NCBI GenBank assembly: GCA_043823295.1
Contig: JBDRAY010000099.1
Coordinates: forward strand, 1 to 41,846
Direction: 5' to 3'
DNA length: 41,846 bases
Source of the DNA: Methanobacteriota archaeon
Lineage (GTDB): Archaea > Altiarchaeota > Altiarchaeia > IMC4 > SCGC-AAA252-I15
The notes beneath the pieces are model-generated. The model worked only from the letters and a program-made list of their open reading frames with translations. It was not told where the DNA came from and made no database searches. Positions 3,916 to 36,971 of the stretch are shown here, in pieces (positions within the stretch are counted from its first letter, which is position 1; each line of letters opens with the position of its first letter). The position numbers were made by a program, and so were the translations under genes.

Positions 3916-3956
3916 TGTGTGGTTATTTTATACGGGATTATAGTAAATATTCTTTC

Positions 3957-4900: not shown

Positions 4901-4901
4901 T

Positions 4902-6032
4902 TTAAATCAATGCTCTGCAATCTCCAATACTTATTCCGAACGCTTCATTTAAAGCGAAGCAATAAATACCCTCAACGAGTTCTGCTGCAAGATATGCAAT
5001 GAAAACGCCGATTATTATATAGATTATACCCTTTTTTATGTCTGCCCTCTCTTGAGGATTGTCTGATGTCACGTATCTTAGCGCGTGTACGGCAATCAAT
5101 AGGACTGCGAGTCCTGCGACAACCTGGAGGAATGCTTCGTTTACTTCCCGTAGTGAATGCCCTAACGAAAATACTTCAATTGAGGGCTTTGGCCAAGGTC
5201 CTGGTGTGGGGCTTAAAGCTGCGGGAGAACTTACAGAACTTACTACAGTACTTATCGTCATTGTAGGAAGTAGAGATGCTATTGGGCTGGGCACGGGTGA
5301 ACCAGATATTGTTCCTATTGAACTCGGTATCGTAGGCACGGGGCTTGATGATGTAGCTGGAATGCTTTGGGGGGGAGTTGGTGTTTCAGGAGTTATGTGA
5401 AGACCCGTCATCGGGGGGACGGGTGTTGCCGCAGGGGAGAAGACCGGGCTTGATACTGTGGCAACTGAATGGCTGGTGGGAGGAAGAAACGTGGGGCTTT
5501 GCGGGGGAGGAAGAGTAGGGCTTTCAGGCGGTACTATTGTTGGACTCATTGGGGGTATAACTGTCGGGCTATCTGGCGGTACTATCGTGGGACTTTCTGG
5601 GGGAACAATCGTAGGGCTTGGAGGCACGACCGTCGGACTTGGCTGGGGGGTTGGTGTTCCACTTGCGTCAACATCGAATGTGCCAATATTCTGGTTTACT
5701 CCGGAATTCCAGGTGGAAGTTCCTGCGGTACGGAGACTACCTTGCGCAAAAACCTTAAAGACGACAGTATCCCCTCCAATCCCGCCTTCACTTCCCGGAG
5801 TAGCGGGGTCGTCTCCATTCACCGACATAATCCCGAAAATTCCTGGAGTAGTAACAACAAAGTCTGGGGGATAGTGCACTCCATTAATCCACGCTTCAAC
5901 AACAGTCCCAACCGGCGCGGGACTACCATCAATCAAAAGCGAACCGTAATAGCCGGCAGGGTTCGGAGGCTCTGCGGAAACACAGATTGAAACGGATAAA
6001 AAAAAGAGTAGGAAAGTGTTCAGCCACCTCAT
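4902..6032 (-). CDS. Secreted protein: N-terminal beta-rich module, Pro/Thr/Ser stalk and C-terminal VirB2-like hairpin
   Basis: Signal peptide (LLFFLSVSICVSA). A roughly 100-aa module is shared with the N-terminus of the 3918-aa protein. SPTIVPPx repeats and a long P/S/T-rich tract follow. The C-terminus VAGLAVLLIAVHALRYVTSDNPQERADIKKGIIYIIIGVFIAYLAAELVEGIYC aligns with the short pilins. Confidence 0.6.
   Translation of the reverse strand: MRWLNTFLLFFLSVSICVSAEPPNPAGYYGSLLIDGSPAPVGTVVEAWINGVHYPPDFVVTTPGIFGIMSVNGDDPATPGSEGGIGGDTVVFKVFAQGSLRTAGTSTWNSGVNQNIGTFDVDASGTPTPQPSPTVVPPSPTIVPPESPTIVPPDSPTVIPPMSPTIVPPESPTLPPPQSPTFLPPTSHSVATVSSPVFSPAATPVPPMTGLHITPETPTPPQSIPATSSSPVPTIPSSIGTISGSPVPSPIASLLPTMTISTVVSSVSSPAALSPTPGPWPKPSIEVFSLGHSLREVNEAFLQVVAGLAVLLIAVHALRYVTSDNPQERADIKKGIIYIIIGVFIAYLAAELVEGIYCFALNEAFGISIGDCRALI
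5480..5654 (-). repeat. About 7 tandem 24-nt (8-aa) repeats encoding SPT(I/V)(V/I)PPx
   Basis: Peptide: PSPTVVPPSPTIVPPESPTIVPPDSPTVIPPMSPTIVPPESPTLPPPQSPTFLPP. The plus strand shows reiterated GGnACnATnGTnGGnCTnTCnGG units. The antisense ORFs here (GGTIVGLSGG...) are a mirror artefact of the repeat. Confidence 0.85.
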
Positions 6033-6068
6033 AGTATCTCACTTAACATATTTACTTCAAAGGTTATT

Positions 6069-9000
6069 TTAATCCTTCCTGCTTGTTTTGTGAAAAATTA
6101 AGATGATTACCACTAAAAGTAGTACTAGTCCCCCAATCATAAATGCTCTTGAAAAAGACCCTATTCCCCCACCGTAAAACATTCCAACAGGGGCTCTTTG
6201 AGGGGCTGGCGCTCCAGACACCATTTCACTGAGTATTTCTGTTTCATTCAGTGCGACGTCCCATATCTTGACTTCGTCGATTACTCCTTCGAAGTAGTAG
6301 CCGTTTGAGAGGGCTCCGATCAATTGAGTGTGAGCGGCCGCAGTGTTTGCAACTATTCTCTCGCTCAGTCCCTCGAGTGTTCCGTCTACGTAAATTTTCA
6401 TGTTTCCTAATCCTCCGTATTCGTCGATGAAGAAGGCATTACTATTGTCTATGTCACCGCTTTCTCCAATGTCGAGGAAGAAGTTGTGGTAAGTCGTAGA
6501 CGGTGTTAAACCTCGCTCGCTCTCATACGATTCCGGGATTATAACGTCCTCGGAGTTCAAACTTAAGGTTCTTGCAGGCGCCGGGTGTGGTATGCCTTCA
6601 AGGTCTTCGATGTATGTTAACATCTGCTTCCTCATCCCCGTGAAGTAGCTCCAGTTGTCGCTTCGCCCGGAAAGGTCTGAGAGGATTTCCGCGCTCATGT
6701 TCACTGCGCTCGAGTATCTCGGAGTAAACGACTTATCCACACTCGCGTAAATCCCGTTCAAGTAGGCTTGAGCCTGGTTTGCGGTGGCTCCCGGATTCTC
6801 AGAAATGGCTTTCTCAAGGGTTGCGATTATTCTTGAATCTTCAATTCCCTCTCGCATCGACTCGTAGATGACTGAGTCTAGAACATCCCCACTCCATGAT
6901 GGAACAACAAGCTGGTATCCAGCCTGCGACCTATTACCCTTCAAAGTTCCAACACGCCCGTAGTATGGATGCTCTAAATCGTCGTAAGGGTGTAAACCCC
7001 ACACGTTGTAGGCGTACACGTAAACTCCAGTTCCATTAAGCGCTGAAGCATATACTCCATTTAGGAACCTGTTGTAGAGGATCTCAGGCATCGTCGCAAA
7101 GTATGTCGTATAGTATGACATTGAATCGCCTGAACGTGCAGTCTTCTCAACCTCTGTCTCATTTAACCTGCCGAGAGCGTACACCCTTATATCCAGCCAC
7201 GGGTCCATGGGTGCAAGGTTTCCTCCAGGATCGTCAGTGAAGGAGTGCTCCCACCCGCTTGCTGTTGCGGCACTCCAGCTTAGTGTGCGGTAGTAGTCGT
7301 CGATGAAGTAGACTATGACGTCTTCACTTCGCGTGCTCTGTTTATCCAGTGTGACTGTCACAGTGTTTGAACCAGGATTCAAGAAACTTCCAATACTTAC
7401 ATTGAAAATCTCTGCAGAGTAATTAAGGTCGCTTACAGTCCATCGCTCGATGTTATTTACTTTAATAGACGCTCGTACGTTTGGAGTCGCGCCGTATACT
7501 GTAAAGAATATGCTGTTTGCATTTGGGTCTGATCCGTCAGCTGATGTGGACAAAACAACCTGCCCTGTTGAGGAGGTGGGATTAGTCAGGAAGTGTCCTG
7601 CAAGCGGCTGCTCGCAGTTGGGGTAGTAAGTAACCCACGTTTCAAGTCCTGCCTCCTGAGCTAGCTTGTTCATAAAAGTAGTCCAACCCCGCTCTCCAGG
7701 ATCTACTCCCGGTTCGTCGCTGAAGCTTACTACCGGAGTGACTCCGAAGCCTGCGAAAAAGTTAGCGTATTGCTGAAGTATTGCAGGATATTCTCGCTTC
7801 AGATCTTCCGGATTGAATGTGAAGGCATTGTCTCTTACGTGTAGCATTACCTTGTCCGGCAGGATCCCCAAGTCGGCAAGTTTCTCAATCTCCTGCTGGT
7901 TGGGTGAGTAATCGATCGAGTAGCTGGCGCTTATCACAGGTTTAAAATATATCAGCGGGTTAATATCGTGTCTTTCCATGTTTGCTGCCGCAAGATCCCT
8001 TGGATTAGAAAAGTAAACTCCGGGAGTGTACGGGGAGTTGTATATATACGGGGTTGCGTCTGGCTGCTCAAGAGCAATGTCGTGGACGGTGAATTCAAGG
8101 TCGACTTGCTGGAAGTCGACTCCAGGACCAGAAATCGTGACTGTACCTGTGTATACACCCGGGTTCGCATCCCCTGGAACGTCTACTGTAAGCCAGACCT
8201 GCTGGCTTGATCCAGCCTTGACATCCATCTGATTCCCATCCTCCAAGTACCATGGATTTACGCCAAAAGCGCTTCCACTACCCGACTTCCATCTCTTATC
8301 TATTGCGACGACTTTCTGGATAGTTATGTTATCATCTGGGATTGTGTCTGAACCTTTTACTAGGTCGCTTACGCTAATTTGCACGTTACTTAAATCTTCG
8401 AAGGCGTATATCGAAAATGTCACAGGCTCCGAGTAACCTGCAACCTCAAATGCTTTGATTGTGTTGGTAATCTCGCTCGCACCAGGTATCGTATTTGGGT
8501 AAACCTTTTCCAAATAGTCTCTTGAATAAATTACGTAATTGTTTGGGTAGTCACCCGGATTTATCGTATTCGACTCTACATAATCCCACCTGTACAATGT
8601 CCTGTTCGACCTGTCAATCTCCCTGCTTGTATGAAGGTCATCGAAGCTTACGAAAGAAAGCCTGACGTAGTCTATGGGAAGCGGCTCTATGCCACTTAAC
8701 TGTTGTGGATAGAAAATCTTGAATGTGAAGTATCCGTCAATGCTTCGAAGTAGCTGGAAGGGATTGCTTTCAAGGTATATACGCAAAATCCTCCAGGTGT
8801 CGTCTCCCATACCCCCTAGTCCTCCGATTTCATGGTAGCTTATTTCTCCAAAGTCGAGTTTAGAATATACTGTGGGCTTGCAATAAGAGTTCATGTCATC
8901 GTATTGCCCGCAGTTGGTCTCATCGACAACATCCTTGTATCTAATCTCAAGGATGGCGTGAGAGTATGGGACTCCATTGCCCGAGAGGTTGAGACTGCTG

Positions 9001-12000
9001 GAATCCAACTTGAAGTGCATGCTTGTTTTCGGATAAAGTAGGCGGTACGTCGTAGACCCTTCACTCCGTGCCGCTTCCACACCATCTTCGAGGACTGCAG
9101 TCAAGTAATGCCAGACTCCGTCATTTACTGGAGTGATTCCTTGCGCATAGCTTACGTGGCTGCCGTTTCCAATTCCGAACTGTGCATCACCATTGGCCAA
9201 CCGTATCACGTATTCCTGATTTACCCAAGCCCCACTCCAAAGCCCGCGCTTGAGCACTCCCTGAGTGCCCGTACTCGTAGTCTTAACCCAAGCAGCTAAA
9301 GTGATTTCATCTCCAAGTCCTAAAGCAGGATTTGGATTAATTACAATGTTGTCGTCGACACCGTCGAACTCGTAACCCTGTCCGTACTTACCCGCAACCA
9401 ACTGCGGCGGAGTGTTCCCGTCGCCGTTACCGTGATTCCAATCAGTCAAAGTCCCATGGTAACCTCCCACAACATCATTCGCATTGCCTGAAAACGGGTA
9501 CTCCGCAACCAAACCAACAACACAAACACCACCCTCGTCAACCTGACCATCACAATCATTGTCCAAACCATCACAGGTTTCCACGCCGCCGTTTGTTGGA
9601 GTGCAAGTGGTTCCCATACAGTCCTCCGGAATTTCCCCGAAGATTGAAGTGATTGTTTCCGTCACGTTTATGATTTTATTACTCGGGTAGCCTGCCACAG
9701 TCATGGCTTCTACGATGCGTTCGTCCATAGGCCACGGCCACAACCCCTGCCCGGTCCGAACACCGTCTACGTATCGGCGGCAAAGGTTTGCGCCACGTGT
9801 CGTATTGAAGACGTTTTCGTTAGCGCCATAGGCGTCGGCGACGGTCGCAGCCTCAATATTGTTGTCGGTCGTCCAGTAACCGGGATCCTTATTGTGAAAT
9901 TGTTCTCCAATTACCGTGCTATTAGCGTAGATTAATCCTCCAGGTGGGTAAGTGCCGGCTTCCTTCCAGCGTGCTGATCCGTCTTGGACTTCCCCTCCAC
10001 TTATTGTCGGCCAAATTGGCTCTGTGGATCCAGTAGTACCGTTTACAATTAGCTTATAGTAGTGTCCGTTCCAAGTGGTTGGTATCCTATAGATATTACG
10101 TGATCCAGTATTGTAAAGAGTATTTGGTTTCCACTGATTGTGTGCTCCTAGAATCACGTTGTAATCCACTCCAGGGTGGTTTGTATACACTACATTATCA
10201 CGAATATCTGTTGTTGTAGATCCAGTCAAATAGAAAAGGGTTCTATCGTTGAAAGCAGGGATGTCCTGGTCTGCCGTCACATACGAAAGCGATCCTAAAA
10301 CTTTTATGTCTGCTGCCTGGTCCTGTTCGTCTAGTCTGTCTCGGGATATTAACCCGTAATATTGTGTTCCACTTGGATTCTGTTCTTTTAGGGAATCCCA
10401 AGTTGCAACGCAGTTTTCGCAAAGACCACCATAACTGTTATAGTACATTGAAAACGTCATTTTCGGGTCGCTTCGGCTCGTCCCCTCCCACCGACCGAAG
10501 CATCGGCGGAACGTAGTATTGTCGCCGTGCTGGGAGTTCGAATACGTCTTCCGCGCGATACCGAATCCGGCACAATCTTCAAAGGTGTTGTTATTCGATG
10601 CAGTGTGTGCACCGAATATGTTCGTATTACCGTCAAACGCATCCCAGCCGACAACCCTTCTAATTATGTTGTCGTGTGAACGCGCAATGTTGACCACGGT
10701 TGCGGAAGAATTAAAAGCATTTAATCCTTCTATAACGAAGAAGTTGTTTTGATCCAATAAAACCGGTTCATTTACTCCTGCACCATTTACCCATGCTTTC
10801 CCGTCACGGTAAGCCTTAACCGTTATTGGGGATCCGCTTGACCCGCTTAATCCGTCAGGGGGATTAATCATGGAATCAGAGCCAGTGTAAATTCCATCTA
10901 AAAGACACAGTGTGTGTCCCGGCTGGGCGATACTCCAAAAGTCTGACACCTTAAACGGGCTTGCAAGTGTCCCGGTTCCCCCGCCGGTCGGCGAGGCATA
11001 ATAGTCGCAGTCGGTAGCGGGAGAAGCGCAACCTTCATCGACAACCTCATCACAGTCATTGTCAACTCCATCACAGAATTCAGGAGAAGGAGTGCACACA
11101 TCATAGTGTTCGCAACCGTCTGTGAGGTCTACATTCGCATCTTCGTAGTTGTGGAAGCATCCGTCGAACTGGCATTCCCCGGCGACGCAGCTGGTGAATG
11201 CTTTCGGTATGTAGCAGATGTTTCCGCAGGCTCCGCAGTTGAAGGGGTCGGTCTGAAGGTCGTAGCCTTCGTCTACTGTGGAGGCGGCGGTTTGCGTGCT
11301 GCATCCCATATCGTAGTAGCTTGCGTCGCAGTCGTTGTCGATGCCGTCGCAGACTTCAAGGTAGTCGGGATTGCAAGGGCTTGGCTGGTCGGTGATGGCG
11401 TTCCATGAATAGTTCGCGGCGAGCTGAAGGGTACCTATGGGATTGCTTGTGTAGAAGTTGTTTCGGAACATTCCGGAACTGTTCTTATCGTTCATGGTGT
11501 ACGACCACCACTTCACTGGGTTTTCGTAGTTGGCTGGACCTCCCACATAGTCGAATCCGTAGGTTGAAAGTAGGTTCGGCGAATCCGCGATTTTCCTGGG
11601 ATCGCAGCTTGTCTCCTCGTGCGCCCAGCTTACCAGAGCAAAGTTTTCCCGCTCGAGGAGGTCGAGTCCATACCACGTGTCTCCTATCTGTCCTCCATAG
11701 CGGACTTGGGTGTATTCGTCATACCAGTGGTAGGGGTTGACCATGTCGTCGTACATGAGCACCTTGATGTTTGGGTTGAAGGAGTGGATGATGTCGCTTA
11801 CGTTGTTTATGAATTGTCCAAAGAGCTGGTAGTTTTCTAGTCCAAGCCTTTTCGAGCGGCTGTCGCGGTTGAAACCCCAAATTTCGTCCATGGTTATGAG
11901 GATGTAGTCGGGCGTGAGCTGCTGCATCGTTGGGCGGACGATGTTTTCCTTGTAGACTTCGAGGACTTCTGGGTCTGCGAAGCTCATCTTTTCCGTGCGC

Positions 12001-15000
12001 GTTGCAGTCGTCCTCGGGAGGAAGTCGTAGTCGACGAGTACGGTAGCCCCCGCGGGGATGCTTCCAACTGGAATCCTTGTCACAATCGCCTGCCGTCCAG
12101 CGAGCACGTCGCTGGTATTTAAGGCAGGAATCGGGTTTGTGTAGGTTAACGTGTAGTCTACGTCCCTCTGGTATTTAACAGACTTGTCGAGACTGTATAC
12201 TTCAAGCTCGGTCGCATTGGTCTCAAGGACGTTTCGCAGGGCCCCGCTTACTTCAATGATTTCGAGGTCGTCGACCCACAAGTCCATGGCGTTTGAGCTC
12301 TGTGCCTTAATCTGAATCCACAGGTATTCGACCCCACCGTATGTCGGAAGTGAAATTGTGAATCTCTTCCACACCCCCTCGTAATCCTTAAAAGTGATTG
12401 ACCTGTAGTCATAGTCCTTCATCTCCTGCCTGCTGGAATTATAGAACTTTATGATAATGTTTTGATAGCCCTTCTCTACGGGATTAATGTTCTGTTTTCT
12501 CACGTAAAACGTCAGTTGATAGAGCTTTTCAGATTCGACGTCGAAGTAGCGATCGGATTCGCTGGGGCCGGAGATAAGCGACGAACTTCTTCCGCTTGCG
12601 ATGTCGCTTGGAAGGTGAAGCTTAGCCGAGCAACTTCCTGAGTGACTTACAGTGCAGTCCCTGCTCCAGTCTCCTGGATTTGCTGGTTCCACGACGTGCC
12701 AGCCGTCGGGGAGCGCGCTGCCGACCTCAAAACCCGTGTTTAATGCCACGTTTGGAAGCGCAGGAACCTGTAGGATGTTCGAGCCGTCGAACTGGCCTGA
12801 AACGTTTTGCGCCCAAATACCCTCATAAAGGTTCGGGTTCACGGAAGTGACGTAATAAGGCGACATATAGGTTGCAGTGTGAAAATGCCTTTTCTTTAGG
12901 AAGTCTTCGCGGGCTAGCATGGCATCAATGGTTCCCTGCGATGAAGTCGGGCTTAAATACCTGCCCAATCCCATGTGGTGGAAGTTCATCTTAAGTCTCG
13001 CGAGGTGGTCGAGGAACTCCTCTGCAGTCGGATAATCCGGGTAAGTGAGGCTGCCGTATTCTCCCCTGAACTCGTAGTCTGGCCAGTCTAGGATTTTGAT
13101 GTTGGGGAGTTGTATGTTTGTGCCTTGGCTGTCAAGAAGCCATATTAGGGTCACAACTCCGTAGAATGTTCCCGTTGTCGAGTTTGCGAGCACGAGTATT
13201 TGGTCGGGTTGGGTGAGCAGTATGTATCCTTGATTGTATCCTCCGATTATCTCAGTGTTTACGTTGGCTGCTGCCGCTATTGCGAGGGCTGAAACCGTCG
13301 GATTCGTGTTGGGATTTCCGATTACTATCCTCTTCGTGCCGACTGGAGCGGCGATATCCCCTACCAAAACTGATACAGCTCCCGAACTATTTGCGATGAT
13401 CGCGTCTTTTAAGTAGTGTGCGGTGAAGTTGTCGTAAACGTCGTTTATATCCGTTATTATCTTCCAGGAGGAATCAACTTGGACTTGTGTTGTGGATATC
13501 TCTTGGATTTCCTTGGGCTCCGGGATGATTTCCGGGATGCTTAGTGCCCCGGTTATCGTGAAGTTCCATGAATAACTGGTTGGCATAAGATTGCCCGCCC
13601 TGTCCATGCATTTCACATATACTGTGTGGGGTGCGACAGTTAGGCTGGAAGACACCCAGTATGAATGGGTGACTCCCGTGCTGGTGAAAGTGAAGTCCAT
13701 GCTTGCGTAAGACTTGTCGGCGTCGATTGAACCTTTACACGTTGCGTTCTCGTCGGTTTCAATGATTAATGTGGGTCTTGTTATCCCCACATCTCCCGTA
13801 GGCAGGTGACTTAAGACTCGTGGAGGCCAGTAGTCGAGCCAAAGAGTCTCTTCTTCACCAGCATTCAGCCAGTAGCCTTTACCCGGACTCATTTCGTTTA
13901 GACTCCAGAAAATCTGGGGTACAGAATTGTCAGCCTGAAACCAGCTTCCATTGTCGAAATGCTGAAGTATCGACCAATTACCGTCAATAGACTTCAAAGC
14001 ATCCGCGAGTGCTCTAGTCTCGTTGGTTGTGAATCCAATCATGTTCCAGCAACAAAATGTTGAACCTTGGATGATCGGAGAGTAGACGGATTCCGTAGAG
14101 CCGTAAACTGTGAGCGTGTCGTCTGTATTCATCTTAAGCCAGTAGCCGAGGCCGGGAGTGAGGTGGTCAATCTGAGCGAATCCACCTTTTGCCTTCGTAA
14201 TCCAGCTTCCTGCGGATGCGTTATAGTGGGATATGATGTTCCAGTCGACATCCCCCAAGACGGAATCGATTTCCGTGTTGGTGGGGACGTTGGGGAGAGC
14301 GAACATGTTCCAGTCTTCCTTAAGATCGACGGTTGCAGTTGTTTTGGGGTCGCCGTATTTCATAAGCCATAGGTCGCAGTATCCAAAACCGCAGGTTTTC
14401 GTAGCACCCGCGATATAAATGTCTCCAGTGTCTTGCACGCTAATTCCATTACCTGTGTTTCCTTCGTTATCTCCTTCAGTCTGCTGCCGCAAGACATTTC
14501 CGTCAGAGTCAAACTCAACAAGCCAAAGGTCGCTTCCTCCTGCGCCAAAGGAACTTGTTCTCGCAGTCACATAAATTACGTCGTCTGAGAAAACTTCGAT
14601 GTCATTACCCTCTTCCGTAGAAGTCCCCCCCAAAGTCTTATCCCAAACCAGGTTTCCGTCGGAATCAAACCTCAGAATCCAAACGTCTGAACTCCCTGCT
14701 CCATACGATTTAGTGTATCCCGTAACGTAAACACTTCCGTCAGAGGCAACTGAAACACCCCTTCCGGAATCCATGTCACCTCCGCCAAGCATTTCATCCC
14801 AGATTAAATTCCCGTCTGAATCGAATTTGTGTAGTGTGAGATTATACTTCGAGTTCAATCCCTGCGGAGGTGCAGCCTGAGTTAAACCAGTAACGTAAAT
14901 GCTTCCGTCAGAAGATTCAGCGAGTCCATAAGCCTGGTCTTGAAGGCTTCCCCCGAAAGTCTTATTCCAAATCAAGTTTCCGTTGCTGTCAAACTTTAAA

Positions 15001-17825
15001 AGCCAAGAGTCATATGGGGGTACTACTACTCCAGCAACGTATACAAATCCATCTGAAGATACTAGAACGTCATTACCTAATGAGTTTCCAACTCCAGGGA
15101 TTTGTTTATCAAAAATTAGGTTCCCGTTCGAACCATATTTTAAAAGCCATAAGTCTTGGTCTCCAACGCCTTGGGTAAATATTCCTGTTGCATACACGTT
15201 ACCGGAAGAATCAATGTCAACTCCCCTACCCGCGCTAGTATTCGTCATGGAATAATGGGTTGTGCTGGGTGATTTATCCCAAAGAAGGTTTCCGTCGGAA
15301 TCATACTTGACCAGCCACAAGTAGCTAGTATCAGTTTTGTTGGTGTATTCAACCGATCCCGTTACGTACACGCTTCCGTCGGCTGCAACCACAACATCTT
15401 CCCCATAAGACCTTGATATCTCGGGCCTACCCGCACTCTCCTCCCACATAAGCTTAAAGGGGGTCTCGATGCACGAACTTGAGAAATCACATCTCTTATT
15501 GTGGGTGGCATCACAGTAAGATCCCGTAGGGCAATCCAGGGCGTCTGCACAGTCAGAAAGCCCATCCACGTCTTCATCCCCTCCAATCATGCATTTTTCA
15601 GGTGGCATGCAAAGACCGATTGAATTGCATACTAGAGTATGCCCAGCATTACAGAAGACGCCTTCATGACAATCTAGAACATCCGCACAATCGGATAGTG
15701 TGTCACCATCTTCATCCCCTTGGAGTTCACACTCCTCGTCTGACGGGATTGAGCCTGAAAACTGAACAGATGCCGAGGCATTAACTCTTCCATCACCTTG
15801 TATTTTCGATGGATACAACAAGTCTATTGCGGTTTCCTCCATGACTTTTTTCACGTCACTGGGAGTCCAATTTGAGTGTGCCTGTTTCATAATTGCCGCC
15901 AACCCTGAAACGTGGGGTGTGGCCATGGAAGTTCCGGAGATGTTGATGTGGCTTGTATCAAAACAGTGGATGTCGACTCCAAAGCCAATCCAAGCCTCAT
16001 CCCACATAGTGTCCTGAGAGGATTGTGCTGCGCAAATGAGTCCTCCCGGAGCTACAACATCTGGTTTTATGATCGTCTCTCTTGGAAGTTGAATTGGGCC
16101 GCGCGAGCTGAATCCTGAGATAATATCTGCTTTGTCTGTTGAGCCGACTGTTATGGCTTTCCTGGCGGTTCCAGGAGTTCCGATGGTCTCGTCCCCTGTT
16201 TTTATGCAACTGCTGCTTCCTTGGGGTCCGCAGTTTCCAGCCGCAACAACTGCGATGACTCCGTTTTCAACTGCAGTATCAATTGCCCGGGATGATATGT
16301 CGTCTGGCCCGCAGTTTTCATCGTAAACCCAGCATTGACCCCCTAGACTTAAGCTGATTACATCTATAATGTCATTTGGGTTGGTTTCCCCAGCATCAAT
16401 TCCATAAACGAGTCCGTCCCCGTCTAAGTCATAGGATTTTTCAATAGCCGCGATAATATTTGAAAAGCTTCCACCTCCAGACTGGCTTAAAACCTTAAAA
16501 GCGTAAAGTTGAGCATCTGGTGCAACACCATTGAGAGCACCGTTTCCTGCTGCAGTTGCAGCACAATGGGTTCCGTGGCCGTTGTCGTCCATCGGGTCTG
16601 CGTCATTGTTTACGAAGTCCCAGCCTCCCACCACCTTGCAGGATGGTCCCAGGCACCCGCCGAGGTCGGGGTGTGTGTAGTCTATGCCCGTATCAAGTAT
16701 GGCGACAGTCATATTAGCGCCGGTAATACAGGGTCTGCCTGAAACACCACAATCGTTTCCGTCCGCATCTAAAAGCCACACGTCATTAGCTTCAATCAAT
16801 TCCACAGAATCCATCAGCGTCTCGTAAACATCCAGGTTCGGATACACTCCCTTAATCTGTGGGAGAGCTCTTAACGCATCTGCTTCTTCTTCAGAAATGT
16901 CTACGGAAATACCGTTGATCACCTTGTTGAAGGTGCGTTCAACCTTAAGGTGTGGGATTGCTGATCTTATGAGGTCTAAGGTTGCATCCTGCTCCTTGTT
17001 TACCACCGTCTTTTGTGAGGCGAGCTTGTCGGGCAGAAGGCTTTGTAGTTCGGATATTTCCCTTGTTATCGAGTTTGCTTTTGAGGATGTTGGGGTTAGG
17101 GTTTTCCGCGAAGCTTCCATGAATCTTATCTCTTCTAAGGCTTCGGCTCTGACTTTAAGGGGTGGTTTCTCGTGGAATTCAATGATATATCCATCGAATT
17201 TGGGCTTTACCACTTCTTGAAGTTGCAGTGGTGAGAGTGTCGAAACCGGTGAGGGCGGGTCGTGGTATACTACTTCCCCCGGAATTGAGATTATGTTCCA
17301 ACCTGAATTCAATTGTTTTTCGATGTTGAATGTGCAGTCTGTACAGGAGAGTTCTATTGATTGAAGGTTTGCGCCCTGCCATTGTGCGGATTGCTCTGTG
17401 GTGTGTCCGTTAATCTTGAATATGATTGTTTCCCCGTATACTCCCCCCTCTTTTGTTCCAGTGCCCGGGTCGTCACCGTTTATGGACATGACACCGTATA
17501 CTCCCCTTTCCGTCACGATGAAGTTGGCGGGATAATTTACACCCCCAATCCATGCAGAGATTACAGTTCCGGGTGGTGCGGGAAACCCGTCCATTGTGAC
17601 GGTTCCGTTAAACCATGCTGGAAGGGGAGGAATCCCGGAAATGGCCAGGGGGTTTACCCTTGCCTCCGTAAACAGTCCTCCAGGAACCTTAAGCCCGAAG
17701 TCGGCGACGATCAAGCCGAAGAATATTATAATAATAATTATGGTACTAGAAATTAGGGTATTTCGTTTCGCCCTCTCTAACCCCAAAATTGTATTGTTCA
17801 TAAATGTTTTTCCCAGGGAATCCAT
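6069..17825 (-). CDS. Giant (3918 aa) membrane-anchored multidomain surface protein: subtilase, 7-blade propeller, glycosidase-like, CBM, beta-helix and LamG modules
   Basis: Uninterrupted 11,757-nt ORF. N-terminal TM (STIIIIIIFFGLIVADFGL) and C-terminal TM plus basic tail (MIGGLVLLLVVIILIFHKTSRKD). An I9-like propeptide precedes a subtilase triad read directly: D378 (VAILDTGIDYTHPDL, 16692-16694), H417 (NGHGTHCAATAAG, 16575-16577) and S633 (SGTSMATPHVSG, 15927-15929). Then come two Cys6 acidic repeats, seven propeller blades and two GWN...GYWL modules. A GH20/GH84-like signature follows (QGYILL..GTFYGVVTL..ILDWPDYEFRG..LKMNFHH), then a CBM-like jelly roll (NTGFE..GW..LWVDDLEI). There are three CDGxDNDCD motifs and a beta-helix lead-in (YYASPTGGGTGTLASPF). 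Two LamG-like modules and a DUF4091/GH123-like region (..VIYESMREGIEDSRII..) complete it. Confidence 0.85.
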   Translation of the reverse strand: MDSLGKTFMNNTILGLERAKRNTLISSTIIIIIIFFGLIVADFGLKVPGGLFTEARVNPLAISGIPPLPAWFNGTVTMDGFPAPPGTVISAWIGGVNYPANFIVTERGVYGVMSINGDDPGTGTKEGGVYGETIIFKINGHTTEQSAQWQGANLQSIELSCTDCTFNIEKQLNSGWNIISIPGEVVYHDPPSPVSTLSPLQLQEVVKPKFDGYIIEFHEKPPLKVRAEALEEIRFMEASRKTLTPTSSKANSITREISELQSLLPDKLASQKTVVNKEQDATLDLIRSAIPHLKVERTFNKVINGISVDISEEEADALRALPQIKGVYPNLDVYETLMDSVELIEANDVWLLDADGNDCGVSGRPCITGANMTVAILDTGIDYTHPDLGGCLGPSCKVVGGWDFVNNDADPMDDNGHGTHCAATAAGNGALNGVAPDAQLYAFKVLSQSGGGSFSNIIAAIEKSYDLDGDGLVYGIDAGETNPNDIIDVISLSLGGQCWVYDENCGPDDISSRAIDTAVENGVIAVVAAGNCGPQGSSSCIKTGDETIGTPGTARKAITVGSTDKADIISGFSSRGPIQLPRETIIKPDVVAPGGLICAAQSSQDTMWDEAWIGFGVDIHCFDTSHINISGTSMATPHVSGLAAIMKQAHSNWTPSDVKKVMEETAIDLLYPSKIQGDGRVNASASVQFSGSIPSDEECELQGDEDGDTLSDCADVLDCHEGVFCNAGHTLVCNSIGLCMPPEKCMIGGDEDVDGLSDCADALDCPTGSYCDATHNKRCDFSSSCIETPFKLMWEESAGRPEISRSYGEDVVVAADGSVYVTGSVEYTNKTDTSYLWLVKYDSDGNLLWDKSPSTTHYSMTNTSAGRGVDIDSSGNVYATGIFTQGVGDQDLWLLKYGSNGNLIFDKQIPGVGNSLGNDVLVSSDGFVYVAGVVVPPYDSWLLKFDSNGNLIWNKTFGGSLQDQAYGLAESSDGSIYVTGLTQAAPPQGLNSKYNLTLHKFDSDGNLIWDEMLGGGDMDSGRGVSVASDGSVYVTGYTKSYGAGSSDVWILRFDSDGNLVWDKTLGGTSTEEGNDIEVFSDDVIYVTARTSSFGAGGSDLWLVEFDSDGNVLRQQTEGDNEGNTGNGISVQDTGDIYIAGATKTCGFGYCDLWLMKYGDPKTTATVDLKEDWNMFALPNVPTNTEIDSVLGDVDWNIISHYNASAGSWITKAKGGFAQIDHLTPGLGYWLKMNTDDTLTVYGSTESVYSPIIQGSTFCCWNMIGFTTNETRALADALKSIDGNWSILQHFDNGSWFQADNSVPQIFWSLNEMSPGKGYWLNAGEEETLWLDYWPPRVLSHLPTGDVGITRPTLIIETDENATCKGSIDADKSYASMDFTFTSTGVTHSYWVSSSLTVAPHTVYVKCMDRAGNLMPTSYSWNFTITGALSIPEIIPEPKEIQEISTTQVQVDSSWKIITDINDVYDNFTAHYLKDAIIANSSGAVSVLVGDIAAPVGTKRIVIGNPNTNPTVSALAIAAAANVNTEIIGGYNQGYILLTQPDQILVLANSTTGTFYGVVTLIWLLDSQGTNIQLPNIKILDWPDYEFRGEYGSLTYPDYPTAEEFLDHLARLKMNFHHMGLGRYLSPTSSQGTIDAMLAREDFLKKRHFHTATYMSPYYVTSVNPNLYEGIWAQNVSGQFDGSNILQVPALPNVALNTGFEVGSALPDGWHVVEPANPGDWSRDCTVSHSGSCSAKLHLPSDIASGRSSSLISGPSESDRYFDVESEKLYQLTFYVRKQNINPVEKGYQNIIIKFYNSSRQEMKDYDYRSITFKDYEGVWKRFTISLPTYGGVEYLWIQIKAQSSNAMDLWVDDLEIIEVSGALRNVLETNATELEVYSLDKSVKYQRDVDYTLTYTNPIPALNTSDVLAGRQAIVTRIPVGSIPAGATVLVDYDFLPRTTATRTEKMSFADPEVLEVYKENIVRPTMQQLTPDYILITMDEIWGFNRDSRSKRLGLENYQLFGQFINNVSDIIHSFNPNIKVLMYDDMVNPYHWYDEYTQVRYGGQIGDTWYGLDLLERENFALVSWAHEETSCDPRKIADSPNLLSTYGFDYVGGPANYENPVKWWSYTMNDKNSSGMFRNNFYTSNPIGTLQLAANYSWNAITDQPSPCNPDYLEVCDGIDNDCDASYYDMGCSTQTAASTVDEGYDLQTDPFNCGACGNICYIPKAFTSCVAGECQFDGCFHNYEDANVDLTDGCEHYDVCTPSPEFCDGVDNDCDEVVDEGCASPATDCDYYASPTGGGTGTLASPFKVSDFWSIAQPGHTLCLLDGIYTGSDSMINPPDGLSGSSGSPITVKAYRDGKAWVNGAGVNEPVLLDQNNFFVIEGLNAFNSSATVVNIARSHDNIIRRVVGWDAFDGNTNIFGAHTASNNNTFEDCAGFGIARKTYSNSQHGDNTTFRRCFGRWEGTSRSDPKMTFSMYYNSYGGLCENCVATWDSLKEQNPSGTQYYGLISRDRLDEQDQAADIKVLGSLSYVTADQDIPAFNDRTLFYLTGSTTTDIRDNVVYTNHPGVDYNVILGAHNQWKPNTLYNTGSRNIYRIPTTWNGHYYKLIVNGTTGSTEPIWPTISGGEVQDGSARWKEAGTYPPGGLIYANSTVIGEQFHNKDPGYWTTDNNIEAATVADAYGANENVFNTTRGANLCRRYVDGVRTGQGLWPWPMDERIVEAMTVAGYPSNKIINVTETITSIFGEIPEDCMGTTCTPTNGGVETCDGLDNDCDGQVDEGGVCVVGLVAEYPFSGNANDVVGGYHGTLTDWNHGNGDGNTPPQLVAGKYGQGYEFDGVDDNIVINPNPALGLGDEITLAAWVKTTSTGTQGVLKRGLWSGAWVNQEYVIRLANGDAQFGIGNGSHVSYAQGITPVNDGVWHYLTAVLEDGVEAARSEGSTTYRLLYPKTSMHFKLDSSSLNLSGNGVPYSHAILEIRYKDVVDETNCGQYDDMNSYCKPTVYSKLDFGEISYHEIGGLGGMGDDTWRILRIYLESNPFQLLRSIDGYFTFKIFYPQQLSGIEPLPIDYVRLSFVSFDDLHTSREIDRSNRTLYRWDYVESNTINPGDYPNNYVIYSRDYLEKVYPNTIPGASEITNTIKAFEVAGYSEPVTFSIYAFEDLSNVQISVSDLVKGSDTIPDDNITIQKVVAIDKRWKSGSGSAFGVNPWYLEDGNQMDVKAGSSQQVWLTVDVPGDANPGVYTGTVTISGPGVDFQQVDLEFTVHDIALEQPDATPYIYNSPYTPGVYFSNPRDLAAANMERHDINPLIYFKPVISASYSIDYSPNQQEIEKLADLGILPDKVMLHVRDNAFTFNPEDLKREYPAILQQYANFFAGFGVTPVVSFSDEPGVDPGERGWTTFMNKLAQEAGLETWVTYYPNCEQPLAGHFLTNPTSSTGQVVLSTSADGSDPNANSIFFTVYGATPNVRASIKVNNIERWTVSDLNYSAEIFNVSIGSFLNPGSNTVTVTLDKQSTRSEDVIVYFIDDYYRTLSWSAATASGWEHSFTDDPGGNLAPMDPWLDIRVYALGRLNETEVEKTARSGDSMSYYTTYFATMPEILYNRFLNGVYASALNGTGVYVYAYNVWGLHPYDDLEHPYYGRVGTLKGNRSQAGYQLVVPSWSGDVLDSVIYESMREGIEDSRIIATLEKAISENPGATANQAQAYLNGIYASVDKSFTPRYSSAVNMSAEILSDLSGRSDNWSYFTGMRKQMLTYIEDLEGIPHPAPARTLSLNSEDVIIPESYESERGLTPSTTYHNFFLDIGESGDIDNSNAFFIDEYGGLGNMKIYVDGTLEGLSERIVANTAAAHTQLIGALSNGYYFEGVIDEVKIWDVALNETEILSEMVSGAPAPQRAPVGMFYGGGIGSFSRAFMIGGLVLLLVVIILIFHKTSRKD
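14350..15440 (-). repeat. Seven tandem SBBP-like beta-propeller blades within the giant ORF
   Basis: Seven units of the pattern DG(S/F)(V/I)YV(T/A)G ... (D)(L/V)W(L/I)xK(Y/F)DS(D/N)GN(L/V)(L/I)W(D/N)K. Examples: AADGSVYVTGS..LWLVKYDSDGNLLWDK, ASDGSVYVTGY..VWILRFDSDGNLVWDK and DTGDIYIAGA..LWLMKYGD. Confidence 0.8.
15788..16748 (-). other. Peptidase S8 (subtilisin-like) catalytic domain within the giant ORF
   Basis: Asp, His and Ser motifs occur in canonical order and spacing (D378, H417, S633). The oxyanion-region motif AAGN (VIAVVAAGNCGP) lies between H and S. Confidence 0.85.
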
Positions 17826-17888
17826 GTTACCTACCCTGCCACTTGCAGACGTGTTAACTTATGGGCAGGTTTAATGTAAATAAGGGTT

Positions 17889-18203
17889 TTATGGGCAGGG
17901 TGGTCCGCACGCGATTGTACCGCCATAGGCCATCTGTAAGGCATGACAGTACAACCCGCATACTAGGTTGAAGGCGAGGTATGCGACAATCAACCCTACT
18001 ATAGTCCAGATCAGCCCTTTTTTCGCTTCAGCCCTGCCTTTAGGAGACTCTGACATAAGCCATCGCAGTCCTTGAAGAGCAATCATGAATGTGGCTAAGG
18101 CTGCTGCAAGAGTCATTAAGCCTTCATTCAAGTCGAATGCGGACGCATTCCCAGTTAAGGCTGTTAGGATCATGCATGTGAGTTGGATCTTTTTTTTATT
18201 CAT
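17889..18203 (-). CDS. VirB2/TrbC-like pilin candidate (short paralog)
   Basis: Signal peptide (IQLTCMILTALTGNASA) then LAAALATFMIALQGLRWLMSESPKGRAEAKKGLIWTIVGLIVAYLAFNLVCGLYCHAL. The loop and second helix are nearly identical to those of the 118-aa ORF. It overlaps the stop of the upstream 751-aa gene by 8 nt. Confidence 0.6.
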   Translation of the reverse strand: MNKKKIQLTCMILTALTGNASAFDLNEGLMTLAAALATFMIALQGLRWLMSESPKGRAEAKKGLIWTIVGLIVAYLAFNLVCGLYCHALQMAYGGTIACGPPCP

Positions 18204-20451
18204 CCTTGTTTGAAAACTTATGCCTTACAAATTTCGGGTAAGTGCGACGTATCCCGTAGGTTGGATCGATGATGAACTTTACTGCTGATTCCATCCTATC
18301 CCAAGATATGCTGGAGGTAGAGCAAGGTTTGACTAGGAAGAATCCTTGAATTGAGACTGCGATTGTCTTATCATCGAACTCAAAATTTTCAGGCTCCTTA
18401 AATGTTAGTTCGACGTAGTCTCCGGTAGTTAAGTTAAGGTAGTTTCCATCGTCTTCTAAGAGGTAATCCAGAATCTGGCTTTCAGAGTATTTCGTATTGG
18501 ACTCTGCTTTTATTGGAGTGATTTCACGTATTTCTAATTTACCGTCCAACTCGAATTCGACTTGAGCATAGTCTATTTCATACGCAAGCGTTGAGGAATC
18601 GAGTTTAATGTATATTGAGTCGTTTTCAGGCACGTTTAAGACTAATATGTTCTCCTGGATAATGCCCGCTCCCACACCATAAGCCTTCTGCCTTACCCAA
18701 ACTGATCCATCCCACACCTTAACGTTCAGTACTCCTTCACGGTCTCGAAGCTTGTAAAGCGCACTTTTAAGTGGTTCATGCCATGACAATCGCGCGATCT
18801 TTTCAGCATTCAACTTTCCTAAAATATTTTGGAATTCATTCCAAGCATGTGACACTCCACCCGAACCTTTAACTCCTAAAAGAAGCTTGGCCTGGCTCTT
18901 TAAGGGTGGATTCGGAAAAGAGAGTATGATTCCATCGTGCAAGTCCTCAATATCGTATTCATCAATAATGTCGTCGCCATCAGAGTCTCTCAAGTTTTTA
19001 TCGTCGACAGAGCTCATCCAGTATACTCCATCGTTTTCCATGAACTCCAAGCATTCTGTACCATCCTCCTCAAAGCAGGATAATGGTTTGACTGGATTGG
19101 TGGTGGTGTGGAATCCACCATCCAGGTCGGGGTATACCCTATTTTTCTTTTCATGTCCTATGACGAATAATCTCACCTTATCTGTGAAACTGTCCTCAAC
19201 GAGTTCTTCAGTAATGCGTATCTTGTATTCCCCGCCAGATTCCTCTAAGTTTTCCAAAACCGAATACGATTCATCCTCCCAAGGGGGAAGAGCGCTATGA
19301 GGGTAACCTTCATGCTCTAGAACGTATTCACTCCCATTGAAAGAGTATATGAAAGGGCACCCGTCGTCAGGATTTGGAGATGGTGCTGAAGGACAAGTTG
19401 CATCACAATTGCATGCTCTGCCAATGTTGCCTGGCTTGGCGCATTCATAAGATAGCAGGTAGATGACAAGCCCTCTGCCTCCCGCGATGATGATTAATCC
19501 AGCTATAATATACATTAAAGCCTTTTTAGAGTTGTCTCTTTTAGCTGGAGTGTCTGCCGTAAGCCATCCCACTGCCACATACATCATCATGACAGTTCCC
19601 ACTCCCACGGCTATTCTGCTTATGAGGTTTATGATGGGATCAAATGCTTTTTCAACTCCGTCGGCGATACAGTTTGCATTCGCATCCGTGTTTACAGGGT
19701 CAGCCCAGTCTTCTGCGGCATTATCCATTTCATACTGGTCTATCATGCCGTCACCATCTGTGTCGTCACAAGCGTCCCCTTCCTGATCGCATCCCACAGT
19801 GCCTTCATCACAGTAACTGTTCGGCATAGTGCCACCTGGGTTGTTCGCAATAGCAGGGCAATTGTCCACTTCATCAGGACAGCCGTCTCCATCAGCGTCT
19901 GTGACACAGGAACCATCCCACCAACCACACCCGCTCATAACCTTGCATGGATTCACTCCGCAATCCTTGGAATTAACGTAGTCATTGCACTCGAAATTCC
20001 TGGGGCAGTCAAGGCATCTTTTAAATTTATCGGAACTATCGTATTCCGGGACGCAACCTGTGGGAGCCGCCGCAGTACCCCTACAAGGTCCCTCGGGTTT
20101 TCTTCCCCCGCAACCTGCACTACAGTACTCGTAGTCGACAATCCATTCGCACTTTGCCGCACCCGTAGCGTGACATGGGTCTCGATTACACACCCACTCA
20201 AAGTCATAGTCTGAACAGTATATGTCATCTCTATCCGGGCAACTCCGACAAGTCCACAGTAAAATACCCATGTCAGGATAACATATTCCATCACCTGATG
20301 AATCAGTATCATAGTTCACACAATTGTTGAAGCAGGTTACGTCATAACCTACACACTCAATGAATGCAAAATCAAACCAGGCACAGGCTGTTGCTGAAAC
20401 ATTGTTTGAAAGAAAAAATACGATCAACACCGCGACTATTCTATTGTTCAT
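18196..20451 (-). CDS. Cys-rich secreted protein with TSP3-like Ca-binding repeats, an internal VirB2-like hairpin and a roughly 400-aa C-terminal domain
   Basis: Signal peptide (IVAVLIVFFLSNNVSA). A roughly 230-aa region contains more than 30 Cys. Acidic motifs DADGDGCPDEVDNCP and DDTDGDGMIDQYEMDN fit the thrombospondin type-3 pattern DxDxDGxxDxxDNC. The internal module ISRIAVGVGTVMMMYVAVGWLTADTPAKRDNSKKALMYIIAGLIIIAGGRGLVIYLL (about 19447-19650) aligns with the pilins. The C-terminal domain was not recognised. Confidence 0.6.
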   Translation of the reverse strand: MNNRIVAVLIVFFLSNNVSATACAWFDFAFIECVGYDVTCFNNCVNYDTDSSGDGICYPDMGILLWTCRSCPDRDDIYCSDYDFEWVCNRDPCHATGAAKCEWIVDYEYCSAGCGGRKPEGPCRGTAAAPTGCVPEYDSSDKFKRCLDCPRNFECNDYVNSKDCGVNPCKVMSGCGWWDGSCVTDADGDGCPDEVDNCPAIANNPGGTMPNSYCDEGTVGCDQEGDACDDTDGDGMIDQYEMDNAAEDWADPVNTDANANCIADGVEKAFDPIINLISRIAVGVGTVMMMYVAVGWLTADTPAKRDNSKKALMYIIAGLIIIAGGRGLVIYLLSYECAKPGNIGRACNCDATCPSAPSPNPDDGCPFIYSFNGSEYVLEHEGYPHSALPPWEDESYSVLENLEESGGEYKIRITEELVEDSFTDKVRLFVIGHEKKNRVYPDLDGGFHTTTNPVKPLSCFEEDGTECLEFMENDGVYWMSSVDDKNLRDSDGDDIIDEYDIEDLHDGIILSFPNPPLKSQAKLLLGVKGSGGVSHAWNEFQNILGKLNAEKIARLSWHEPLKSALYKLRDREGVLNVKVWDGSVWVRQKAYGVGAGIIQENILVLNVPENDSIYIKLDSSTLAYEIDYAQVEFELDGKLEIREITPIKAESNTKYSESQILDYLLEDDGNYLNLTTGDYVELTFKEPENFEFDDKTIAVSIQGFFLVKPCSTSSISWDRMESAVKFIIDPTYGIRRTYPKFVRHKFSNKDE

Positions 20452-20454
20452 TTC

Positions 20455-22743: not shown

Positions 22744-22744
22744 T

Positions 22745-24363: not shown

Positions 24364-24367
24364 AAAA

Positions 24368-25501: not shown

Positions 25502-25507
25502 TTTAGA

Positions 25508-27839: not shown

Positions 27840-27842
27840 TTT

Positions 27843-36936: not shown

Positions 36937-36971
36937 CTGTTAAAATAACTTGAATCAAAAGAAATAAAATC

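Follow-up and report, generated by a model that had tools for sequence, protein, structure and literature searches.

A giant protein joining a subtilase to glycosidase-like modules lies within the pilin array of a T4SS-like locus in an Altiarchaeota-related archaeon

The window analyzed here is a whole NCBI contig of 41,846 bp (JBDRAY010000099.1, assembly GCA_043823295.1), placed by GTDB among the Altiarchaeota. Within a group of genes resembling a type IV secretion system (T4SS), it carries one giant gene, the subject of this report. The open reading frame (ORF) occupies 6069..17825 on the minus strand, as do all of the modules described below, and runs for 3918 codons without interruption. 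With about 3 stops per 64 codons, the computed chance of a frame of this length is on the order of e^-188. The first-pass annotation had reported a 3918-aa protein here, and the public annotation (P0143), whose source record is the window itself, agrees with it: starting at Met9 (window position 17801), it gives a 3910-aa product that is 100% identical. Every motif the first-pass annotation had quoted is present where it had been placed. Homologue searches were made with three segments of the protein separately.

A Kyte-Doolittle scan of the giant protein finds only two hydrophobic segments, one at each end, as expected from the earlier mention of transmembrane (TM) segments at both termini. 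The first (aa ~21-49; 17679..17765) is a predicted signal anchor or signal peptide. The second (aa ~3888-3915; 6081..6164) is a predicted TM anchor, and direct reading places a 7-residue basic tail after it. A class III (type IV pilin-like) signal peptide was considered and rejected, as the N-terminus reads KRN-TLISS, without a KRG-type cleavage motif. Further in lies an Inhibitor_I9-like propeptide (aa 213-333; 16827..17189), which matches Pfam PF05922 at 1.8e-5 (25.8 bits; cut-off 21.2). Next comes a Peptidase_S8 subtilase domain (aa 369-675; 15801..16721; PF00082, 1.2e-56) that is near full length, spanning profile positions 1-284 of 288. By direct reading, the catalytic triad comprises D378 (DTGID), H417 (HGTHC), and S633 (GTSMATP), all in canonical motifs, with N530 as the oxyanion residue; both the complete triad and the preceding propeptide had been recognized in the first pass, and the Pfam matches bear them out. 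Two Cys-rich repeats (aa ~697-785; 15471..15737; direct reading), in a region with 11 Cys within aa 701-800, lead into an SBBP-type beta-propeller (aa ~795-1160; 14346..15443). The propeller had been described as seven-bladed, and seven repeats can indeed be counted directly between aa 819 and 1160. NCBIfam detects SBBP here at 3.6e-30 together with a delta-60 repeat, while the Pfam SBBP and DUF5122 repeats fall below cut-off. Two ‘GWN..I’ beta-rich repeats, read directly, and a weak Ig-like match (Big_13, Pfam E = 0.19) complete this part of the protein (aa ~1165-1429; 13539..14333). The I9-S8 part returned 2408 matches, mostly S8 proteins of 1,200-2,000 aa from DPANN archaea and candidate phyla radiation (CPR) bacteria, and most of the S8 relatives in that family also carry FG-GAP/VCBS repeats. 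On one metagenome contig (L031, 10001-24395 (+)), two giant S8 proteins of 1799 and 3017 aa are encoded in tandem, pointing to local expansion of the protease family.

The next module, aa 1430-2150, opens with a Glyco_hydro_20b (zincin-like) N-domain (aa 1431-1581; 13083..13535) that matches PF02838 at 6.5e-10, above the gathering score; the same Pfam profile is matched by 8/8 members of the family to which this GH20b module belongs. Searched against the PDB, the family profile finds NagJ of glycoside hydrolase (GH) family 84 (6pv5) at 7.8e-15 and many GH20 enzymes as well, in alignments that cover the N-domain and barrel strands 1-2 alone. An AlphaFold2 (AF2) model (pLDDT 70, pTM 0.65) contains the N-domain followed by a GH20/GH84-like (beta/alpha)8 barrel of eight strands (aa 1582-2145; 11391..13082). 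Between strands 3 and 4, the modeled barrel is split by a nested jelly roll (CBM_4_9-like) and a beta-sandwich, together ~280 aa. The jelly roll resembling a carbohydrate-binding module (CBM) had been noticed in the first pass; it is placed here inside the barrel, and CBM_4_9 is detected in 3/8 family members. When the model is used as a Foldseek query, GH20 and GH84 structures rank first (BT0459 at 2e-12), with target-normalized TM-scores of 0.4-0.57 over full-length alignments.

Seven relatives of the GH20b module, all 850-1190 aa long, share 33-42% identity with it, and most have the Cys-rich tail too. An exhaustive profile search of 1.8 billion representative proteins returned 241 matches at E <= 1e-30, some of which cover the profile’s Cys-rich tail alone. 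For this module and for the second glycosidase-like module described below, we placed catalytic residues by AF2 strand positions and family conservation. Here, a candidate acid pair, D1980-E1981 (11883..11888), follows predicted barrel strand 4 (YILIT). The glutamate is invariant in the family and the D1980 position is Asp in 7/8 members, so the acid pair suggested in the first pass within ILITMDEIWG stands as a candidate, with full conservation for its Glu and not for its Asp. The surrounding motif, ITMDEIWG, is unlike the HxGGDE of GH20. The other invariant features of the family are DWPD..R at the barrel entry, K1612, N1614, GxNxDSR, WSY, NYxW, and a DDM (2026-2028) that follows predicted strand 5. 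Because the fold similarity comes without a match to the GH20 or GH84 catalytic profile, the GH20b-headed barrel is best regarded as a distinct, uncharacterized family with a clan-GH-K-like predicted fold and a plausible acid pair, a member of neither GH20 nor GH84. The GH20/GH84 reading of the first pass thus survives for the N-domain and the barrel fold and fails as a family assignment by sequence.

Some members of this family occur as stand-alone proteins. Three of them (P0004, P0005, and P0006; L005) have N-termini of the form M..KKRG(I/L)S followed by a hydrophobic stretch, resembling archaeal class III signal peptides, and Pilin_N is matched in 1/8 family members. From these sequences, the stand-alone GH20b enzymes of those archaea may be processed by prepilin peptidase or displayed with pili.

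A Cys-rich linker (aa ~2150-2265; 11031..11378) separates the GH20b module from the remainder of the protein. It is of the MopE type (Pfam Cu-binding_MopE and direct reading), of which the giant protein has three CDGxDNDCD motifs, and linkers of this kind are also attached to stand-alone GH20b-module homologues. The region beyond it (aa 2266-2745; 9591..11030), for which the first pass had proposed a pectate-lyase-like beta-helix, belongs to no assigned family; neither Pfam nor NCBIfam gives a match for it. Five metagenome relatives share 32-53% identity with it, each within a different protein, and Chondroitinas_B matches 3/5 of these (best E 0.0025). Against the PDB, a profile search matches chondroitinase B at a marginal E = 0.003, over the N-terminal ~50 residues of that enzyme alone. 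Its start, ‘YASPxGxGNG..SPF’, is what we take to be a cap typical of right-handed beta-helices. The module is probably a right-handed beta-helix, as judged from these sequence features: the proposed helix keeps the marginal chondroitinase B similarity and has no Pfam match for the window sequence behind it. A module of the same type occurs in a bacterial-type protein of at least 3017 aa, truncated at its N-terminus (L019, 3-9053 (+); JGI contig Ga0209518_1002332), alongside LamG, fn3 repeats, a Pel9A/chondroitinase-B-like helix, CBM9, and PG_binding_1, and thus once more within a giant polysaccharide-directed protein.

The C-terminal third of the protein is organized as one domain inside another. 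LamG-like sequence occurs in two stretches, aa 2765-2915 (9081..9533) and aa 3788-3868 (6222..6464). When these are spliced together, Pfam reports one full-length Laminin_G_3 match, covering profile positions 1-150 of 151 at 68 bits, compared to 51 bits for the two unspliced stretches together. Because splicing yields a single full-length match, we read them as the N- and C-terminal halves of one LamG domain with an insert of ~870 residues. The ‘two LamG modules’ of the first-pass annotation are accordingly one domain, split by a GH123-like module.

That inserted module (aa 2921-3790; 6456..9065) has the GH123/DUF4091 fold by Pfam, profile-to-PDB, and Foldseek comparisons. A beta-sandwich forms its N-terminal part, followed by a barrel into which a further beta-sandwich is inserted and by helices at the C-terminal end. 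The GH123 N-domain is recognized by PF22680 (Glyco_hydro_123_N_2; aa 3139-3232) at 2.2e-10 and by PF19543 (GH123_N) at 4.7e-8. The family profile finds BvGH123 (5l7v) at 9e-14 and CpNga123 (5fqe) at 8e-10, with the N-domain and the first strand aligned. The Pfam DUF4091 model has no match in the giant protein at E <= 1, and comparison of this region with NgaDssm gave an insignificant local alignment. Most of the core of the AF2 model has pLDDT values in the 70s-90s (64 for the segment overall). Searching the PDB with this model by Foldseek, we found that the 22 best structures are all beta-N-acetylgalactosaminidases/hexosaminidases of the GH123/DUF4091 type (E 1e-19 to 1e-11), with target-normalized TM-scores of 0.54-0.67. 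Directly after a predicted barrel strand lies a DE motif, D3370-E3371 (SFSDEP; 7713..7718), and the DEP formed by D3370, E3371, and P3372 is invariant in 10/10 aligned family members. DE is the defining catalytic pair of GH123/DUF4091, in which Asp stabilizes the 2-acetamido group and Glu is the acid/base, and it is kept in 94% of DUF4091 proteins (bioRxiv 10.1101/2023.07.28.550916). The module is best described as a divergent, probably active member of the GH123/DUF4091 superfamily, to judge from the model and the alignment. The DUF4091/GH123 region of the first pass is therefore upheld by the GH123 N-domain profiles, the fold, and the invariant DE, and not by the Pfam DUF4091 model. For the GH20b and GH123-like calls alike, profile and fold support and candidate acid pairs are present, which had been named as the check on the glycosidase assignments.

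The GH123-like insert has 14 relatives. The closer ones are 40-49% identical and 1058-1346 aa long, and one is from a Phycisphaerae bacterium. In most of these closer relatives the topology is reversed, with LamG inserted into the GH123-like enzyme.

The many modules of binding type (propeller, CBM, LamG, Ig-like, and Cys-rich repeats) and the strong divergence of the GH20-like barrel could instead be explained if the protein were a pure adhesin, its enzyme-like modules catalytically dead and acting as lectins in attachment to a partner cell or surface. We consider this very unlikely: the subtilase keeps its triad and propeptide intact, DEP is invariant throughout the GH123-like family, and in the GH20b family E1981 never varies, nor do several acidic residues.

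Combinations of the same modules recur in other giant proteins. P0149 (3369 aa) joins I9, S8, PA, FG-GAP, and a GH20b module; P0142 (3057 aa) joins a GH123 N-domain to two tandem GH20b modules; P0144 (3209 aa, Woesearchaeota) joins LamG and MopE to a GH20b module; and another woesearchaeotal protein, P0154 (1900 aa), also has a GH20b module. At the sequence level, protease, GH20b-type, and GH123-type modules are thus fused repeatedly, which is Rosetta-stone-style evidence that they act jointly. Their fusion in differing orders in other archaeal giants argues for action on one substrate, most likely an N-acetylhexosamine (HexNAc)-containing glycoprotein or wall polymer. The gene itself was probably put together from cassettes in circulation among DPANN-type archaea, where they also form genes of their own or enter into other combinations. 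Four such cassettes can be proposed: the pro-subtilase with the propeller, the GH20b-headed barrel with its CBM, the probable beta-helix, and the GH123-fold module within LamG.

The giant gene is embedded in a T4SS-like operon encoded entirely on the minus strand. In order, domain searches identify a PrgI/VirB3-like gene (22745-23686), a VirB4-like ATPase gene (20455-22743), genes for a 751-aa pilin-domain protein (18196-20451) and a 104-aa pilin (17889..18203), the giant gene, and genes for a 376-aa protein with a C-terminal T4SS_pilin domain (4902..6032) and a 118-aa pilin (4544-4900). The giant gene is separated from its neighbors by 63 nt and 36 nt. Pilin domains of the T4SS_pilin family (PF18895), a type characteristic of Patescibacteria T4SS, occur in five ORFs of the window, so the pilins and VirB4 that the first pass had seen around the giant gene are all real, as is the PrgI/VirB3-like protein. 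The fifth pilin gene, encoding 108 aa (34416-34742 (-); E = 4e-13), lies apart from the main operon, adjoining a spermidine-synthase-like gene and two PMT_2 glycosyltransferase genes (35311-38108). The window also encodes A-type ATPase B and D subunits, aRF1, and the archaeal PheRS beta chain. For its VirB4-like protein, identity is 98% with the counterpart in ‘Euryarchaeota archaeon SCGC AAA252-I15’ and 61-90% with proteins on contigs labeled Candidatus Altiarchaeota, Altiarchaeales, or ‘uncultured archaeon’. Neither a relaxase nor a coupling protein was seen in the window.

The T4SS-like locus is chromosomal and is kept in 13 contigs (L006-L018) of Altiarchaeota and related uncultured archaea, with VirB4 identities of 61-98%. 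Where the flanks suffice, it comprises a large protein of 1400-1770 aa, two or three proteins of no assigned function, PrgI/VirB3, VirB4, and PF18895 pilin-domain proteins (17889-32807 in the window). A literature search found no published description of such a locus in Altiarchaeota. At the head of the window operon (27843-32807 (-)) is a gene for a 1654-aa protein without a Pfam match. ORFs of 1400-1770 aa occupy this position in L006, L010, L012, L013, and L018, matched by position and size, and the copy in L006 aligns with the window at ~92% nucleotide identity. Between the gene for a 377-aa protein and the PrgI-like gene, an ORF of 197 aa without a Pfam match lies on the opposite strand (23770-24363 (+)), occupying what would otherwise be a 680-nt gap in the operon; a promoter internal to the operon may lie here, or else a small gene in divergent orientation.

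The closest relative is the single-cell genome SCGC AAA252-I15, one contig of which (L006) is collinear with the window on both sides of the giant gene. By blastn, window 17861-32593 aligns with L006 14901-126 at 92-93% nucleotide identity, window 5971-6098 with L006 15027-14900 at 84%, and window 3852-5190 with L006 16447-15106 at 89%. The junction sequences show that window positions 6098 and 17861 are directly adjacent in the sister contig, so that the segment bearing the giant gene, 6099..17860 (11,762 bp), is missing there. What survives of the gene in the L006 spacer is a remnant of its final ~10 codons: ...CCACAAAACATGCGGGAAGGATTAA there is the homologue of the gene’s end, ...TCACAAAACAAGCAGGAAGGATTAA, stop codon included. 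Because L006 keeps this 3’ relic, loss in the AAA252-I15 lineage would be more parsimonious than gain in the lineage of the window.

The spacer upstream of the giant gene (17826-17888 (-)) has a TATA-like box, TTATTTACATTAAA. The sister contig shares this box, which there would lie ahead of the 376-aa gene. A Shine-Dalgarno-like GGTAGGT is found 4 nt before the first ATG of the giant gene. As read from these elements, an internal promoter in this spacer is possible. Inside the 376-aa gene, window 5190-5971 has no nucleotide alignment with L006, and the flanks of this stretch align at 84-89%; in these two sequences, the extracellular part of the pilin-fusion protein appears hypervariable. Farther downstream, synteny with L006 ends near window 3852, beyond which A-type ATPase B/D and CBS-domain genes follow in the window, and a 524-aa ORF and archaeosine TGT in L006 (16448-22286). 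A rearrangement could account for this break, and so could a misjoin of either assembly.

These data also bear on a possible assembly artefact, an ORF made chimeric by an in-frame join of foreign sequence to the operon. The occurrence of the protein on one contig alone, the derivation of its best module relatives from other DPANN lineages and bacteria, and the absence of the gene from AAA252-I15 would all fit such an origin. A chimera is nonetheless unlikely, because codon usage, the 3’ relic in the sister contig, and a frame that stays open for 11.7 kb through every module boundary all argue for an authentic gene. The codon usage of the individual modules correlates with that of the other contig genes at r = 0.55-0.82, within the range of those genes among themselves, and the whole giant gene reaches r = 0.88; recent foreign origin or chimerism was thus rejected on composition. 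Since L006 keeps the last ~10 codons at the exact site, and similar multi-module giants exist in other genomes, we give a chimera hardly any chance at all.

A broader comparison shows that the giant gene is not a fixed part of the locus. A tblastn search with the giant protein against the 13 related VirB4 loci returned no match in any of them (13/13). In the more distant relatives, the pilin-domain genes run directly into SerRS, ThrRS, archaeosine TGT, or UbiD, and a conserved hydrolase at the same operon position was therefore rejected, housekeeping genes standing there instead. From the other direction, no T4SS genes were found near relatives of the giant protein’s modules in the eleven gene neighborhoods examined. 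These include three stand-alone GH20b-module neighborhoods, one of which (L005) contains archaeal marker genes, and three S8 relatives. Since the T4SS-like locus persists without the giant protein, we regard the gene as an accessory of the locus, not as a core component.

This pattern weighs on the idea that the protein is a dedicated T4SS-like component, an archaeal analogue of VirB1, PrgK, TraG, or CwlT that opens the cell’s own or a partner’s S-layer or wall for pilus or channel assembly or docking. The gene shares its strand with the pilin genes on either side, at gaps of 63 nt and 36 nt, and it pairs peptidase with glycosidase functions, as do the VirB1-type hydrolases of monoderm T4SS with their two domains. 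In a Patescibacterium, the peptidase and lysozyme genes adjacent to virB4 are essential, and, going by the 3’ relic in L006, the common ancestor of both genomes probably carried the giant gene here. Set against these points, the closest relative has an otherwise intact operon without the giant gene, the 13 related loci have neither it nor another hydrolase at that place, and the neighborhoods of its module relatives contain no T4SS genes. We find a dedicated role doubtful. The functional link to a filament or channel drawn in the first pass thus keeps its positional basis within the pilin/VirB4 cluster and is weakened by the absence of the gene from every related locus. Because of this position, and given the precedent of VirB1/PrgK and of virB4-adjacent hydrolases, the protein may yet assist contact or the pilus.

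Nutrient scavenging would explain the protein just as economically. It would then be an exo-enzyme complex that breaks down glycoproteins, chitin, or peptidoglycan debris from the environment for uptake, and would lie in the pilin array incidentally, for instance through the variability of the region. Consistent with this, one S8/LamG/beta-helix relative (P0073) is encoded directly upstream of a branched-chain amino-acid ATP-binding cassette (ABC) importer, module relatives are scattered over unrelated contexts, and the region downstream of the operon is variable, as seen in the end of synteny near 3852 and the divergent stretch of the 376-aa protein. The window offers no sugar or peptide transporter or HexNAc catabolic gene adjoining the giant gene, and scavenging leaves the tight nesting among pilin genes unexplained. 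We hold this alternative to be possible, while leaning against it.

Our preferred reading, which we consider reasonably probable, is that the giant protein is a lineage-specific, surface-anchored protease/HexNAc-glycosidase fusion of cassettes that is accessory to the T4SS-like locus. On this reading, the protein would be exported by Sec and tethered by its C-terminal helix. GH20, GH84, and GH123 enzymes use substrate-assisted catalysis on HexNAc, and both glycosidase-like modules would cleave beta-linked N-acetylhexosamine glycans in the same way. The subtilase would attack the protein moiety of the glycoprotein or wall polymer that bears these glycans, with the propeller, CBM, and LamG binding the substrate. 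A further possible target of the subtilase is the giant precursor itself, cut at its Cys-rich linkers; S8 domains of other giants have been proposed to act in this way. By these activities the protein may help a pilus or cell contact through a glycoprotein envelope or matrix, in a setting where the apparatus exists without it.

Several observations count against this interpretation. We know of no enzymatic activity or substrate for either glycosidase-like family. At E <= 10, neither the GH20 catalytic profile (PF00728) nor the GH84 catalytic profile (PF07555) is matched by any of the 8 GH20b-module family members, and the Asp of the candidate pair D1980-E1981 is replaced by Gly in 1/8 relatives. 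Confidence in the AF2 models of the two glycosidase-like modules is moderate (pLDDT 70 and 64). Both LamG halves were left unmodeled by AF2 (pLDDT < 50; the alignment did not include them), so the split-LamG claim rests on the spliced-sequence Pfam test. In the representative protein library, the giant protein is on record from one contig alone, and exact-sequence look-ups starting at Met1 or at Met9 returned nothing. Finally, L006 belongs to a single-cell assembly made by multiple displacement amplification (MDA), and its deletion is possibly an artefact.

A bolder version would make the protein an envelope-breaching ‘warhead’ that a subset of Altiarchaeota-related archaea has added to a Patescibacteria-type T4SS-like pilus. 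The protease, the two HexNAc-directed glycosidases, and the chondroitinase-B-like helix would together open the HexNAc-rich wall of a partner or prey, be it S-layer glycoprotein, pseudomurein, or methanochondroitin. We judge this unlikely. If it were true, the protein would be an archaeal, non-homologous counterpart of VirB1/PrgK, and its presence in the genome would speak for a lineage that depends on cell contact, possibly as a parasite or for DNA exchange.

DPANN archaea and CPR bacteria are characterized by giant multi-domain surface proteins, whose enzymology is almost unexplored. The protein described here joins in one polypeptide a widespread protease family, an uncharacterized GH20b-headed barrel family, and a divergent branch of the recently expanded GH123/DUF4091 beta-N-acetylgalactosaminidases. 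Its presence/absence polymorphism in a conserved pilin array provides a natural experiment on enzyme help in pilus-mediated cell contact. The nesting is of interest for protein evolution as well, with an enzyme within LamG here, LamG within the enzyme in relatives, and a CBM within the barrel.

The GH20b-headed module shares with GH20 and GH84 the GH20b N-domain, the ‘DWPD..R’ entry to strand 1, and the K.N motif of strand 2. Its candidate Asp-Glu pair follows predicted strand 4, which would be the GH20 position; the H-x-G-G-D-E context of GH20 is absent and the ~280-aa CBM/beta-sandwich insertion divides the barrel. Likeness to GH84 is limited to the N-domain and strands 1-2, which can be aligned to NagJ; the invariant DD of the giant protein (2026-2027) follows predicted strand 5, whereas the Asp-Asp pair of GH84 follows strand 4. 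The second module resembles the GH123/DUF4091 enzymes CpNga123, BvGH123, NgaCa, and NgaDssm in its beta-sandwich, its predicted (beta/alpha)8 barrel with DE after a barrel strand, and its C-terminal ‘ES(M/L)REGIED’. It differs from them in its ~12-16% identity, an extra N-terminal extension of ~200 aa, an inserted beta-sandwich, and its nesting in LamG.

Among surface proteins, the large S8 proteins of DPANN archaea and CPR bacteria are close counterparts. Their I9 and S8 part is 40-56% identical to that of the giant protein in hundreds of relatives (Micr-, Woese-, Pace-, and Nanoarchaeota, Parcubacteria), and some also carry LamG, MopE, or beta-helix modules. In contrast to them, the giant protein has an SBBP propeller in place of FG-GAP/VCBS repeats, no match covers more than 46% of aa 1-1190, and three more enzyme-like modules are fused behind the propeller. 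The first-pass annotation had likened the protein to the SPEARE proteins of Nanohaloarchaeota, which are also giant, mostly extracellular, membrane-anchored, and equipped with serine-protease and laminin-G modules. Conservation among SPEARE proteins is highest in a restriction-endonuclease region on the cytoplasmic side, and a BC-toxin-like domain is present in them too (PMC6642349). The giant protein has neither: only the 7-residue tail lies behind its C-terminal TM segment, where the type III restriction-endonuclease-like region would be expected. Membership of the SPEARE group was ruled out by this missing cytoplasmic nuclease domain, and the analogy does not hold.

The locus itself has a parallel in Patescibacteria, where a VirB3-VirB4 pair is followed by pilin arrays sometimes interrupted by non-pilin genes (PMC12102498). 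The window likewise shows a VirB3-VirB4 pair and a PF18895 pilin array broken by a non-pilin gene. In Ca. Southlakia epibionticum, peptidase and lysozyme genes beside virB4 are essential, and VirB1/PrgK are two-domain wall hydrolases (PMC12102498). The giant protein resembles such T4SS wall hydrolases (VirB1, PrgK/TraG/CwlT, and those of Ca. Southlakia epibionticum) in bringing peptidase and predicted glycosidase functions into a VirB4/VirB3/pilin locus. Unlike them, it has no lytic transglycosylase, CHAP, or lysozyme homology, is about ten times larger, and is not conserved with the locus. Peptidase (N-terminal S8 included), glycosyl hydrolase, and adhesion modules are likewise combined in the archaeovorins and other giants of Omnitrophota, whose genes neighbor pilus or secretion genes and for which prey-envelope digestion or self-processing has been proposed (10.1101/2023.11.21.568195). 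They differ in being bacterial, 10-20 times larger, and associated with loci resembling type II secretion systems (T2SS) or type IV pili (T4P), and in having other domain sets. Giant multi-domain surface hydrolases/adhesins of DPANN-type archaea are thus already known, and the protein described here is a variant of this kind. What sets it apart is the nesting of its domains, the union of a protease with two HexNAc-glycosidase-like families, and a clean presence/absence polymorphism in a conserved pilin array.

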